Source: Dehalococcoidia bacterium (GTDB lineage: Bacteria > Chloroflexota > Dehalococcoidia > Lucifugimonadales > JAGWBF01). From it: a stretch of DNA of 64,000 nucleotides. Shown here one piece after another: positions 47,533-52,500 of the stretch; position 1 is the stretch's first letter, and every line of letters starts with the position of its first letter. A model generated the notes under the pieces. It saw only the letters and a program-made list of their open reading frames with translations, was not told the DNA's origin and did not search any database. Made by a program: the position numbers and the translations under genes. The DNA is taken from the NCBI GenBank assembly GCA_965248975.1, contig CBDFKU010000020.1, positions 152,952 through 216,951 of the forward strand, in the 5' to 3' direction.

Positions 47533-48099
47533 TTAAGCCTCGCCGCCGTTAAGGCCCAACTGCGCCGAAATCGGTTTCAGACTCTCGATGACGAAGTTTA
47601 CGTGCTCTTCTAGGTCCACTCCCAGATCCTCGGCGCCCAGCGAGATGTCTTCCCGCTTCACGTCCTTGGCGAAGGCCTTGTCCTTCATCTTCTTGAACAC
47701 GGACTTTGGAGTGACGTCGTCCAGGCTTTTGGTCGGCCTGACCAGAGCCACCGCCCTGACGAACCCCGAGAGCTCGTCGACGGCGAAAAGGGTGCGCTCC
47801 ATCAGGCTTTCTCGGCGAAGGCCGGTGTGGTCGCCGTGGGTCAGGACGGCGCGGATGATGGGTTCCGGATAGCCCCGCTCCCTCAGAACTTCGGCACCGT
47901 AGGTGGGGTGCTGCTCTGGTGTGGGAACGATTTCCCAGTCGAAATCGTGGAGCAGCCCGGCGATGCCCCACTGCTCTTCGTCCTCGTCGTATTTTCGGGC
48001 GTAGGCCACCATGGCGGCTTCTACGGCAAGCAGATGCTTCATCAACGTTTCGGTCTTGACGAACTCCTCGAGGATTTGTAGGGTCCCCTCTCTATCCAT
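47533..48099 (-). CDS. HD-domain phosphohydrolase
   Basis: HLLAVEAAM..; GLLHDFDWE; LTHGDHTG. Confidence 0.75.
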   Translation of the reverse strand: MDREGTLQILEEFVKTETLMKHLLAVEAAMVAYARKYDEDEEQWGIAGLLHDFDWEIVPTPEQHPTYGAEVLRERGYPEPIIRAVLTHGDHTGLRRESLMERTLFAVDELSGFVRAVALVRPTKSLDDVTPKSVFKKMKDKAFAKDVKREDISLGAEDLGVDLEEHVNFVIESLKPISAQLGLNGGEA

Positions 48100-48964
48100 C
48101 GGGGCCCTCCCCCTCTAGTTCCGGTTCCTCGAGTCCGGCTCCGCCGATCGCGTTGGACCCGTTGGCGTCGGCTTTCGGGGAGCACCTGCGGGCCGTGGTG
48201 ATGAACCCGGTGTGGGCCACCATCCGGTGGGCCGGCCGCACGCTGCGGTGGGTCACGCTCCAGGGTCGCAGGAGCACCTCCACCGTCTCGATCAGCTGGA
48301 ACCGCGTGTCGGACGTGAGGGCCTCCACCAGCTGGTGGACCTGTAGGATAGTGGGCAGGAAGCTGAGGAAGATACCGCCCATGGCCAGGGACCGGGCCAC
48401 CCCCGGCACGGCCTGCCAGGGCTCGGGCAGGTCCAGGACTACCCGGTCCACGTTCCTCTCTTCGATACCCTGATATACGTCGCCCATCTTCAAGGTATGA
48501 TTGCACGCGCCGGGCACCAGGGTGCGCAGGTTCTCCATGCCCCGGGCGGCCATGTCCTCACGGACCTCGTAAGTCGTGACACGGCCCCTCTCGCCGACGG
48601 CCCTGAGCAGAGCGGCCGTCAAAGCCCCGGAGCCCAGGCCGGCCTCCACCACCGTGGCGCCCGGAAATATGTCGGCCGTTACCAGGATGTTGCCCAGGTC
48701 CTTGGGATAGACCACCTGGGCGCCCCTGGGCATCTCAAGGACGTAGTCACCCAGGGTCGGCTTCACGGCCAGCAGGCTCTGGCCGCGGCTCGTGCGCAGC
48801 CATTCTCCCTGTTCCTTCCCGATTATCTCCCGATGGGCCAGGGTGCCCACGTGGGTGTGGAAAGTGCCCTCGTCCCGGAGCGTCAGAAGATACCTCCTGC
48901 CCTTGCGGTCAATGAGGAGGGCTAGGTCACCCTCTCGGAAATCACCCGTTGAGTTGGTAACCAT
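48092..48964 (-). CDS. trmI: tRNA (adenine-N1)-methyltransferase, TrmI/GCD14 family
   Basis: VVEAGLGSGALTAALLRAVG..; VVLDLPEPW. 8-nt overlap with the HD gene. Confidence 0.8.
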   Translation of the reverse strand: MVTNSTGDFREGDLALLIDRKGRRYLLTLRDEGTFHTHVGTLAHREIIGKEQGEWLRTSRGQSLLAVKPTLGDYVLEMPRGAQVVYPKDLGNILVTADIFPGATVVEAGLGSGALTAALLRAVGERGRVTTYEVREDMAARGMENLRTLVPGACNHTLKMGDVYQGIEERNVDRVVLDLPEPWQAVPGVARSLAMGGIFLSFLPTILQVHQLVEALTSDTRFQLIETVEVLLRPWSVTHRSVRPAHRMVAHTGFITTARRCSPKADANGSNAIGGAGLEEPELEGEGPDG

Positions 48965-49081
48965 GGCGGGCCTGAGCGGGCTCCTTTGGGTGGATTTCGC
49001 CTGACAATTGCGCCGTCGTGGCCAATTCTACCTTCGGAGACTCTCTCAACATCGAAGCTGCGGCCAAGCTCGTTCCATCCC

Positions 49082-49546
49082 TTAGCCCAGCTTCTCCACC
49101 TCGGCCAGGATGTCCGCCGGATCGGGCAGAGAGCCGGCGGCGTATTCCTCGCGGAATCGGATCACGCCGTCCTTGTCCACGATGACTACCGCCCGGTTAG
49201 GCGTACTCCGGTCGGCGTTCCAGAGGTCGTAGGCCTTGGTCATCCCCCCCTGGGGATGGTAATCGGCCAAGAGAGGATAGGGAATGTTGCCCAGACCGTT
49301 GGCGAACGCTCGGTGGGAGTGCTGGCTGTCAGCGCTTATGCCCAGAACCTGGGCACGCTTCTCCTCGAACCGGGCATTGAACTGCCGGAACGAGGAGACC
49401 TGGTGGGTTCAACCACCGGTGAAGTCGAAGACGTAGAACGAGAGGACAACGTGCTTCTGGCCCTTGTACTGGCCCAGGGTTATCTGCTCGCCTGACTGGG
49501 ATGGTAGCTTGAAATCGGGGGCTCGATCCCCCACCTGTGCCGCCAT
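49082..49546 (-). CDS. Peroxiredoxin (AhpC/TSA-Bcp type) with in-frame TGA at the peroxidatic Cys position: candidate selenocysteine peroxiredoxin
   Basis: The minus strand from ATG 49546 (aaaggagg SD) reads MAAQVGDRAPDFKLPSQSGEQITLGQYKGQKHVVLSFYVFDFTGG-TGA-THQVSSFRQFNARFEEKRAQVLGISADS.. It continues in frame into the listed ORF 49082-49270. The TGA (49409-49411) aligns with Cys of FTGVCTTE in the neighbouring paralog. Confidence 0.7.
49361..49397 (-). promoter_or_regulatory. Bacterial SECIS-like stem-loop starting 11 nt 3' of the in-frame UGA
   Basis: mRNA sense: UGA-ACCCACCAGGU-CUCCUCG-UU-CCGG-CAGUUCAAUGC-CCGG-UU-CGAGGAG. 7-bp and 4-bp stems; the apical loop contains GUU. Confidence 0.55.
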
Positions 49547-49601
49547 ATGTGTGCCTCCTTTAGCTTTGATCGTAGAGAGAAAACTGCCCTCGGATGGGTA
49601 A

Positions 49602-50078
49602 TTAGCTGCCGAGCTGGCTCACCGCCTGCCGGACCTCGTCGTAGTTGGGCTCCTCGGCCGGACTCGGGGCCACCCACTTGTACCGGATCACTCCCTCCTT
49701 GTCCACCACGAACACGGCGCGGTTCGCTGCGACGTACCCGCCCAGCCCCGCCAGGTCCGGGAAGCCGACGCCGTAAGCGTTCACCGCTTTCCGCTCATAG
49801 TCGCTGAGAAGGGGAAAGTTTAGGTTGTTCTGGTCGGACCAGGCCTTCTGGGAGAAGGGCGAGTCGACGCTGATGCCCAACACCTGGGCGTTGAGGGAGT
49901 TGAACTGGTCGGACCGGTCGCGGAAGGTGCACATCTCGGTGGTGCAAACCCCGGTGAATGCCCCGGGGAAGAAAGCCAGGACTACGTTCTTGCCCTTGAA
50001 CTCACTCAGGCTGCGCTGCTGAAGCCCGGAGTCGAACAGAGTGAAGTTAGGAGCCTGCTGACCCGTTTCGGCCGCCAT
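49602..50078 (-). CDS. Peroxiredoxin (AhpC/TSA-Bcp type), Cys form
   Basis: Start at MAAETGQQAPNF (aaggagg SD). FPGAFTGVCTTEMCTF; VLGISVDSPFS. Confidence 0.85.
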   Translation of the reverse strand: MAAETGQQAPNFTLFDSGLQQRSLSEFKGKNVVLAFFPGAFTGVCTTEMCTFRDRSDQFNSLNAQVLGISVDSPFSQKAWSDQNNLNFPLLSDYERKAVNAYGVGFPDLAGLGGYVAANRAVFVVDKEGVIRYKWVAPSPAEEPNYDEVRQAVSQLGS

Positions 50079-50222
50079 CGTCGTACCTCCTTGTGGATGA
50101 TCCGGGGGTCGGAATTCGGGACGCCCGCCTACACCGGGAACAAGGCAGCCACCATTATAACCCATCCGCAGGGGAGGTACTACAGGAACGGTACGGAAAT
50201 GGAGACCTTGCGGAGATTCGGC

Positions 50223-50609: not shown

Positions 50610-50813
50610 CTAGCCCCCGCCCACGGGCTTGACGATCTCCAGGACGTCCCCTTCCTTGAGCAGCACCTCGGAGAACTTCTCCTTCTCCAGCACCTCGCCG
50701 TTGTAGCCCACGGCCACGTGCTGCAGGTTCACCCCGTGGTTCACCAGGAAGCTCACCAGGTCCAGCGATCTTTCCAGGTCCCGGGGCTTTCCGTTGACCA
50801 TCAGCTTTATCAT
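50610..50813 (-). CDS. thiS: Sulfur-carrier protein ThiS
   Basis: 67 aa ending ..VKPVGGG, adjacent to thiE/thiG. Confidence 0.85.
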   Translation of the reverse strand: MIKLMVNGKPRDLERSLDLVSFLVNHGVNLQHVAVGYNGEVLEKEKFSEVLLKEGDVLEIVKPVGGG

Positions 50814-51535
50814 GCTCTGCGCTCTTTCACCAGCCTGCGCCCCGACGTCTCCACCCCAGCGCCGTTCCCAACGGCAGGTCCAGGCTCCGACCGATCTGCG
50901 CGCCAGGCTAGGCCCAGGGCTTCCTTCAGCTCTCTGGAGGCCCTCTCGGGGTCGTCCGTTGTCAGGATTGCGCTGATGACCGCCGCTCCCGAGGCACCGG
51001 CATCGACGACCTGCCCTATGTTCGTGGCATCGATGCCTCCGATTCCCAAGAATGGGATGTCGGTACGGCTCGCCATCCGAGCGAGCATCTGGGGACCGGC
51101 GGGCTCCGCTCCCGGGTGAGAGCTGGTGGCGAACACTGCACCGGCCACCAGGAAGTCGGCGCCGGACAGCTCGGCGGCACGGGCGCCTTCGACGTTGTGC
51201 ACCGAACGGCCGATTAGGCAGCTGTCCCCGGACACGCTTCGTGCGGAAGCTACCGGGATTCCATCCTCACCCAGCTGGACTCCGTCGGCGCCGCAGGCTA
51301 GGGCCACGTCTACCCTGTCGTTGACGAAGAGGAGGGCTGACCCCTGAGTGATCTTCCGCAGCTTCTCGCCGAGACGGAGAAGGGGCCCTCCAGCCAGCTC
51401 TTTCTCCCTTAGCTGGACCAGGTCGACACCCCCCTCGACGGCCCGCGACACCCTGTCTATCAGGTCGTGGACATCGCGGCAAAGGCGGAGGTCGGTTACC
51501 AGGGCCAGGCAAGGGACCGGTAGGCTGGCCTTCAT
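50810..51535 (-). CDS. thiE: Thiamine-phosphate synthase ThiE
   Basis: VQLREKE..; FVNDRVDVALACGADGVQLG; IGGID. ATGA overlap with thiS. Confidence 0.85.
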   Translation of the reverse strand: MKASLPVPCLALVTDLRLCRDVHDLIDRVSRAVEGGVDLVQLREKELAGGPLLRLGEKLRKITQGSALLFVNDRVDVALACGADGVQLGEDGIPVASARSVSGDSCLIGRSVHNVEGARAAELSGADFLVAGAVFATSSHPGAEPAGPQMLARMASRTDIPFLGIGGIDATNIGQVVDAGASGAAVISAILTTDDPERASRELKEALGLAWRADRSEPGPAVGNGAGVETSGRRLVKERRA

Positions 51536-51540
51536 CGTAG

Positions 51541-52332
51541 CTACCTGGAGGCGGACATGGGCTGGGGCACGTCCTGGGTGGGGCTACTCGCCTCGGCATA
51601 CACCTTCGTCGGGATTCGGCCGGCCAGGTAGGCCATTCGCCCCGCTTCCACGCCCCTCTTGAAGGCTTGGGCCATCATCACCGGGTCCTGGGCCTGGGCG
51701 ATGGCCGTGTTCACCAGCACCGCGTCGGCCCCCATCTCCAGGGCCTGAGAGGCGTCGGAGGGCACGCCCAGACCGGCGTCCACCACCACGGGGACGTTGG
51801 CCTGCTCGACTATGATGCGTATCTCCTCGGCTGTGTGTATACCCCGGCCCGAGCCTATGGCCGAGCCCAGGGGCATGACGGTGGCGCAGCCGACCTCTTC
51901 CAGCCTTTTGGCCAGCACGGGATCGGCGTGGATGTAGGGCAGCACGATGAAGCCCTCCTTCACGAGCTGCTCCGCTGCCTGCAACGTGCCCACCGGATCG
52001 GGAAGGAGATACTTGGCGTCGGGTATCACCTCAAGCTTGACGAAGTTGGTGTTGCCCACGGACCGCCCCAGCTTGGCAATGAACAGCGCTTCCTCGACGG
52101 TACGGCAACCGGCGGTGTTGGGGAGGATCTGGTACTTGTTCCAGTCGAGGTAGTCCAGGATAGTCTTCTTGTTGGGGTCGTCCAGGTCCAGGCGGCGTAT
52201 GGCCACCGTGACCATCTCCGCGCCCGAGGCCTCGATGGACTGGACCATCTCCTCCATCGTGCGGTGGCGGCCGGTTCCCGCGATGAGCCTGGAACTGAAC
52301 TTCTTCCCGCCGATCTCCAGCAGGTCTTCCAT
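51541..52332 (-). CDS. thiG: Thiazole synthase ThiG
   Basis: Start at [21 protein letters not shown] (gaggagaggg SD). VLPY..D; [11 protein letters not shown]; VVVDAGLG. Confidence 0.9.
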
Positions 52333-52354
52333 GTGCCCTCTCCTCGTCATCCGC

Positions 52355-52500
52355 GGGAAACAAGAACCGCCAGGATGCACTCCTGGCGGCGGCCTCTAGG
52401 TCCAACCGACCCTTCCCTACGCCGGCATTACCCGGATCAGGTACGGCGGTCGGTGACGAATCGGCCACCCTCTCAGCCTGGCTTACCCAAGCTCCCGACA
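52355..52500 (-). promoter_or_regulatory. TPP (THI-box) riboswitch with terminator-type expression platform, leader of thiG-thiE-thiS
   Basis: Minus strand: ..GCCAGGCTGAGAGGGTGG..ACCTGATCCGGGTAATGCCGGCGTAGGGAAGGG.. (conserved CUGAGA and ACCUGAUCNGGNUAAUGCCNGCGNAGGGAA). Then the hairpin CCGCCAGGA-gtgca-TCCTGGCGG followed by ttcttgttt. Confidence 0.85.

Follow-up and report, generated by a model that had tools for sequence, protein, structure and literature searches.

A predicted AhpE-type selenocysteine peroxiredoxin encoded across an in-frame UGA in a Dehalococcoidia-like bacterium

Overview

The minus strand of the 64-kb stretch of DNA analysed here (the window) carries a peroxiredoxin gene whose reading frame is interrupted once, by a UGA at the codon for the catalytic residue. 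Very probably, this is a genuine selenoprotein gene. It belongs to a Dehalococcoidia-like (Chloroflexota) bacterium, and its product would be an AhpE-type one-selenocysteine peroxiredoxin (Sec-Prx), with UGA46 read as selenocysteine (Sec). The first-pass annotation had proposed a selenoprotein at this locus from the letters of the window, and that proposal is now strongly supported by a TGA in 80/80 loci (the best 80 of 233 relatives), by the dN/dS ratios of the flanking codons and by covariation in a hairpin that follows the UGA.

Structure of the gene and position of the in-frame UGA

The Sec-Prx coding sequence (49546..49082, minus strand), identified from its translation, Pfam matches and orthologs, is composed of 154 sense codons, with Sec at codon 46, followed by a TAA stop codon. 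The start codon is the ATG at 49546..49544 and the stop codon occupies 49084..49082. A Shine-Dalgarno sequence, AGGAGG, can be read directly at 49559..49554 on the same strand, 7 nt 5' of the ATG. An AhpC/TSA-type frame of this length, starting at ATG 49546 behind a good Shine-Dalgarno sequence, had been described in the first-pass annotation, and all of its coordinates hold.

The UGA (49411..49409, minus strand) is the sole in-frame stop codon before the TAA and lies in the context FDFTGG-*-THQVSSF. The predicted Sec46 aligns with the peroxidatic cysteine (Cp), Cys45, of AhpE and completes a T43-G-G-U46 (TxxU) motif. Sequence and alignment also bear out the earlier observation that the UGA occupies the site of the Cys in the FTGVCTTE motif of the adjacent paralog.

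The list of open reading frames represents the Sec-Prx locus by two pieces, one of 45 aa (49409..49546) and one of 62 aa (49082..49270). An antisense frame of 169 aa (48986-49495, plus strand) overlies the gene, with a GC3 of 0.62 as against ~0.8 in the neighbouring genes. This frame is probably spurious; a naive gene caller might output it instead of the split selenoprotein gene.

Coding potential is 0.28 and 0.31 on the two sides of the TGA, close to the mean of 0.32 for real genes, and when all in-frame TGAs of the 64-kb window were ranked by codon usage, this one came first on both sides. No second selenoprotein was found in the window by either a GC3-based screen or the codon-usage screen. 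The candidates from the GC3 screen were rejected as antisense or low-complexity frames, and the other TGA candidates from the codon-usage screen as antisense to long ORFs. A promoter and terminator scan around the genes yielded nothing useful.

Protein family and active site

For the protein searches, Cys was placed at codon 46 of the window sequence. The Pfam AhpC-TSA family (PF00578) matches residues 5-131, across the TGA, with a score of 122 bits against a cutoff of 26 (E=1.9e-35), and the Redoxin family also matches (E=3.1e-21). The best match among solved structures is Mycobacterium tuberculosis AhpE (Rv2238c; E=1.8e-23), which is 36% identical over 138 residues in an alignment that contains a single gap of one residue. 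The top seven PDB matches are all AhpE, with scores of 83.5-86.2 bits, and the next match scores 71.3 bits.

Two further Sec-Prx residues, Thr43 and Arg118, align with the other two catalytic residues of AhpE. The Thr43 codon of the TxxU motif lies at 49418..49420 (minus strand), and Thr is found at this -3 position in all 81 sequences compared (the window plus the best 80 of 233 relatives). Arg118 (codon 49193..49195, minus strand) lies in the segment NRAVVIVD and corresponds to the conserved peroxiredoxin active-site Arg; it is invariant in two alignments and aligns with the Arg of NRGTFVVD in AhpE. The window Sec-Prx contains no Cys whatsoever, and most of its orthologs contain a single Cys at a non-equivalent position.

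AhpE is a 1-Cys, mycoredoxin-dependent peroxiredoxin, and mycothiol and mycoredoxin form an actinobacterial system. Sec-Prx resembles AhpE (PDB 1xxu, 1xvw, 4x0x) in its length of 153-154 aa, in its conserved Thr and Arg and in lacking a resolving Cys. It differs in having Sec in place of Cys, and Val in place of the Pro at -7. Cys homologs of Sec-Prx carry the JGI name 'mycoredoxin-dependent peroxiredoxin'.

The -7 substitution involves Val39 (codon 49430-49432, minus strand), which replaces the Pro of the PxxxTxxC/U motif. Val or Ile takes the place of this canonical Pro in 71/81 Sec-Prx sequences (the window plus the best 80 of 233), a set that includes every Chloroflexota member and in this respect sets the Chloroflexota clade apart from the known Sec-peroxiredoxins. 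The Pro is kept in just 10 of the 81, all of them non-Chloroflexota. Two homologs with Cys at the Sec site, P0010 and P0011, carry Ile and Val at the same position, so the loss of Pro is specific to the clade and not to Sec.

Peroxiredoxins with a TxxU motif are an established selenoprotein family (PMC13188914, PMC1794560, PMC1088965), known since 2001-2005, abundant and experimentally founded. The window gene shares with this family (PF00578, TxxU) the AhpC/TSA domain, Sec in place of the peroxidatic Cys, a hairpin directly 3' of the UGA and the existence of widespread Cys homologs. As an example of such proteins, the first-pass annotation had named PrxU from Eubacterium acidaminophilum (described by Sohling et al. 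2001, as cited in PMC13188914). Both are peroxiredoxins with a UGA-decoded Sec at the peroxidatic position, but the window protein has more in common with 1-Cys peroxiredoxins of the AhpE type than with PrxU. The published description makes PrxU dependent on thioredoxin, and the window protein lacks a second Cys; the NCBIfam model for PrxU (NF040737) has 233 positions, compared with the 154 aa of the window protein. None of the curated NCBIfam models reaches its cutoff on Sec-Prx. Sec-Prx reaches 63.6 bits with the PrxU model (cutoff 270) and 26.9 bits with the Prx-SUH model (NF045827; cutoff 298), and is therefore an equivalog of neither.

Conservation of the UGA and selection on its flanks

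A profile search of one genome per bacterial or archaeal species recovered 233 confirmed relatives, of which the best 80 were kept as loci. Each of these 80 comes from a different species-level genome, and their proteins are 42-73% identical to that of the window. They belong mostly to Dehalococcoidia/SAR202 metagenome-assembled genomes (MAGs), many of them closed chromosomes, with a few from Deltaproteobacteria, Binatia and Verrucomicrobiia. TGA is present at the homologous codon in 80/80 of these best 80 of 233, and the flanking reading frames are intact, with no other disruptions. The TGA is seen both in long-read chromosome-level MAGs and in several short-read contigs.

Before the TGA (codons 1-45), the Nei-Gojobori estimate of dN/dS is ~0.16-0.18; after it (codons 47-154), the estimate is ~0.24-0.28. 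Such low values on either side of the TGA show that purifying selection preserves both halves as protein-coding sequence.

Where the predicted Sec is replaced, it is replaced by Cys. A Cys is found at this site in P0010 (FSFTGGCTDQ), P0011, P0031 and many more-distant homologs, and Cys is the sole alternative seen; no TGG (Trp) or Gly codon occurs at the site among the homologs. Alignment with Sec and Cys peroxiredoxins, which had been proposed as a check on the first reading, sets the TGA on Cys45 of AhpE and on the Cys of distant homologs. TGA and Cys codons alternate at the predicted Sec position, as is typical of selenoproteins.

A conserved SECIS-like hairpin downstream of the UGA

The prototype of the bacterial selenocysteine insertion sequence (SECIS) is that of Escherichia coli fdhF. 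In the window, a SECIS-like hairpin occupies 49398..49360 (minus strand) and begins 10 nt 3' of the UGA; it is supported by folding, by conservation in 80/80 genes, by covariation and by synonymous randomisation. The lower stem contains 8 bp (49398-49391 with 49367-49360) and is separated by a UU/UU internal loop from an upper stem of 4-6 bp, which starts from the pairing of 49388-49385 with 49373-49370. The apical loop, GUUCAA (49382-49377), has G as its first base. The hairpin drawn in the first-pass annotation (CUCCUCG-UU-CCGG / loop / CCGG-UU-CGAGGAG, 11 nt downstream of the TGA) is reproduced by the minimum free energy (MFE) fold, which adds a U-A pair below it and two pairs above.

The 81-nt segment 49420-49340 folds with -42.7 kcal/mol (z=-4.67), and none of 200 dinucleotide shuffles is as stable. 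Because the hairpin sits inside coding sequence, the relevant null is randomisation of synonymous codons with the protein kept, and against this null the window hairpin has z=-4.24. Under the same randomisation, z averages -3.1 over the 80 Sec genes. The Cys paralogs that share these loci lack the hairpin, and 16 of them average -0.65.

A hairpin is found at the same distance from the UGA in 80/80 testable genes (the window plus 79 orthologs from the best 80 of 233). The spacer between UGA and hairpin measures 10-11 nt in 66 of these 80 genes and the apical loop begins 24-29 nt after the UGA in 79 of them; loop length ranges from 3 to 9 nt, and folding energy averages -18.7 kcal/mol (n=80). 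A lack of conservation of the hairpin among TGA-containing homologs had been named at the outset as a finding that would count against a selenoprotein. The opposite was observed, since the hairpin is present in all 80 testable TGA genes and covaries at synonymous sites.

Covariation was scored over 55 distinct sequences in a gapless codon alignment. Two pairs of the lower stem, 18:48 and 21:45, show compensatory change, and both join third-codon (synonymous) positions. In these lower-stem changes, Ser TCC/Glu GAG becomes TCT/GAA in 7 of the 55 sequences and Ser TCG/Phe TTC becomes TCA/TTT in 12. The observed score was reached by none of 500 shuffles and lies above all slid controls. The RNAalifold consensus of the same gapless alignment contains only four pairs of the lower stem, a partial recovery that reflects shifts in the register of the upper stem between clades; the column-wise covariation signal is clean for the lower stem alone.

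The bacterial SECIS consensus has been described previously (PMC1088965, PMC13582414). Like elements of the fdhF type, the window hairpin follows the UGA closely within coding sequence, and its lower and upper stems are divided by an internal loop and capped by a small apical loop. The consensus includes a G as the first or second base of the apical loop (PMC13582414); the window copy has it as the first loop base, and it occurs in 46 of 80 MFE folds, that of the window (GUUCAA) included. The element departs from known bacterial SECIS in that the window hairpin lacks sequence similarity to them, with no SECIS-type Rfam match on 49300-49460 even at E<=10, and in that ~40% of the orthologs lack a loop G at position 1 or 2. 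In several of the folds without this G, a G is instead the loop-closing base.

The homologs with Cys offer a view of the same element after replacement of the UGA. In the Cys-form ortholog P0010 (L088 521-979), which has TGC at the Cp codon, the hairpin is intact (-22.3 kcal/mol), and in the more diverged Cys form P0011 (L089) its lower stem has been lost. The P0010 hairpin is apparently a 'fossil SECIS', and the two genes together show the pattern expected after a recent switch from Sec to Cys. A study of hydrogenases reported the same among its Cys relatives (PMC13582414).

Decoding of the UGA

Genes for the Sec machinery were sought around the locus. Neither the 64-kb window nor 85 related loci yielded selA, selB or selD in tblastn searches with E. 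coli SelA, SelB and SelD, and with ARAGORN the window gave no tRNA at all and the 85 loci gave no tRNA-Sec; this search covered the window and ~0.5 Mb of orthologous flanks, in genomes of ~3 Mb, so that absence from it is uninformative. One SelB-like tblastn match, in locus L025, was rejected as a 401-aa EF-Tu adjoining nusG. Selenoproteins of Chloroflexi were counted as early as 2006 (PMC1794560), and in BSepDB, which takes in only species with a Sec pathway, two of the ten bacteria richest in selenoproteins are Dehalococcoidia MAGs, one with 49 genes and the other with 46 (PMC13326102).

Of the alternatives to Sec, the one that survives best accepts the recoding and questions the amino acid. 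The hairpin and SelB could recode the UGA yet deliver Cys through a non-canonical tRNA; alternatively, the UGA could be subject to low-level near-cognate readthrough without selenium. Transfer of Cys to UGA by a non-canonical tRNA has a precedent (Vargas-Rodriguez et al. 2018, as cited in PMC13582414). The sequence tests applied here do not separate Sec from Cys at a SECIS-directed UGA, and the empty machinery search in the window and flanks fits such a reading as well. However, systems of this kind are rare, Dehalococcoidia genomes with the full Sec pathway encode up to 46-49 selenoproteins (PMC13326102) and a catalytic redox position that alternates between Sec and Cys is the usual hallmark of a selenoprotein (PMC1088965). 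We consider it improbable that the UGA is read in this way.

A pseudogene, in which a peroxiredoxin has acquired a nonsense mutation at its catalytic Cys codon, is suggested by the one TGA that breaks the frame and by public gene calls that give only fragments for the inspected orthologs. This reading is hard to reconcile with a TGA at the identical codon in 80/80 divergent genomes (best 80 of 233) without further disruptions, with dN/dS well under 1 on both sides of it and with a downstream hairpin conserved through synonymous-site covariation. Decay among the orthologs had been anticipated as a possible refutation of the selenoprotein; all of the best 80 of 233 keep the TGA between intact flanks with dN/dS of 0.16-0.28, and we regard a pseudogene as extremely unlikely.

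Another possibility is that a TGC or TGT was turned into TGA by faulty sequencing or assembly, and the Cys-form ortholog P0010 (L088) does have TGC at this codon yet keeps the hairpin. The same TGA would then have to have arisen by error in 80 independent assemblies (best 80 of 233), which include long-read chromosome-level MAGs together with several short-read contigs. The agreement of these assemblies effectively excludes a read error.

Finally, a genome-wide reassignment of UGA (translation table 4 or 25), with Trp or Gly at codon 46 as several ENA gene calls that print W might suggest, is extremely unlikely. Of the 58 long ORFs of the window, 21 end in TGA, among them those for citrate synthase and ThiE; the homologs have TGA or Cys at the site and never TGG or a Gly codon, and the W of one such call, P0001, is TGA in the DNA. 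The number of ORFs ended by TGA identifies the code of this genome as the standard one.

Proposed mechanism

Decoding of UGA46 as Sec remains the preferred reading. On this model, a ribosome that arrives at UGA46 would meet the hairpin 10-11 nt downstream acting as a bacterial SECIS, and the hairpin would recruit SelB-GTP-Sec-tRNA(Sec), leading to insertion of Sec in place of termination. The Sec46 selenolate, positioned and activated by Thr43 and Arg118, would then attack a peroxide and be converted to a selenenic acid. Since the window protein lacks any Cys, recycling would fall to an external thiol partner, which is predicted to reduce the selenenic acid as for 1-Cys AhpE. The sequences establish the gene, its conserved UGA and hairpin, selection on both halves and the alternation with Cys. 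We infer from known families that decoding depends on SelB and that the protein has peroxidase chemistry with a reductant of this kind, and the genome is predicted to encode the Sec machinery.

Genomic context

The Sec-Prx gene is the sixth gene of a same-strand series that follows a TPP riboswitch in the order thiG, thiE, thiS, a small gene, the Cys-Prx paralog, Sec-Prx, a TrmI/GCD14-like methyltransferase and an HD-domain protein. The riboswitch (RF00059; 52397-52508, minus strand) scores 58.4 bits, above the gathering score, and lies directly upstream of thiG (51541-52380, minus strand), followed by thiE (50810-51535, minus strand) and thiS (50610-50813, minus strand). Orthologs of the small gene between thiS and Cys-Prx match SnoaL/DUF4440 weakly.

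The Cys paralog is a BCP/PrxQ-like peroxiredoxin of 158 aa (49602..50078, minus strand) that is 41% identical to Sec-Prx and ends 55 nt before the Sec-Prx start. Its active-site segment, FTGVCTTEMC, contains two Cys four residues apart. The ORF list gives this protein as 187 aa (49602-50165, minus strand), from an upstream ATG. The orthologs have 158 aa, so the real start is probably the ATG at 50078 (MAAETGQQ...).

Downstream of Sec-Prx lie the TrmI/GCD14-like methyltransferase gene (48092..48964, minus strand) and the HD-domain gene (47533..48099, minus strand), both conserved neighbours assigned with Pfam. The same arrangement, from Cys-Prx through Sec-Prx and TrmI to HD, is found again in related genomes. 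Among the best 80 of the 233 relatives, a TrmI-like gene is located downstream of Sec-Prx in at least 53 loci, the Cys paralog precedes Sec-Prx in 28, and 27 loci contain the HD gene. The link of Sec-Prx to the TrmI-like gene is more conserved than that to the Cys paralog, for no functional reason that is apparent.

Annotation of Sec-Prx genes and significance

The prediction that standard gene callers would miss this gene is borne out in public annotation. In all four orthologous loci inspected, the gene is split into a 45-aa fragment and a second fragment of 87 or 103 aa. Protein searches likewise return many shortened products of 87-104 aa that start just after the TGA; those of 100-103 aa come partly from NCBI records, in keeping with the failure of every NCBIfam model to reach its cutoff.

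Full-length calls from ENA metagenomes (P0001-P0009, P0012, P0013, P0015) print Trp at the Sec codon. The DNA was read for one of them, P0001 (L090 70-534), and its codon is TGA. The Trp calls fit a gene prediction that applied translation table 4 to short contigs, and they represent full-length but wrong proteins.

The practical value of the Sec-Prx case lies in annotation. It provides a clean, deeply sampled example of a peroxiredoxin that switches between Sec and Cys and has its SECIS in the coding region, and it leaves the current understanding of selenoprotein biology unchanged. As a consequence of split or Trp-read calls, proteome-based analyses miss an antioxidant selenoenzyme that dozens of Dehalococcoidia/SAR202 species have. 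The replacement of Pro by Val or Ile, the tight linkage to the TrmI-like gene and the scores below every NCBIfam cutoff raise the speculative and rather doubtful idea that the Chloroflexota sequences form a distinct AhpE-like '1-Sec' subfamily. If this were true, annotated proteomes of a lineage abundant in the ocean and the subsurface may systematically lack the subfamily.
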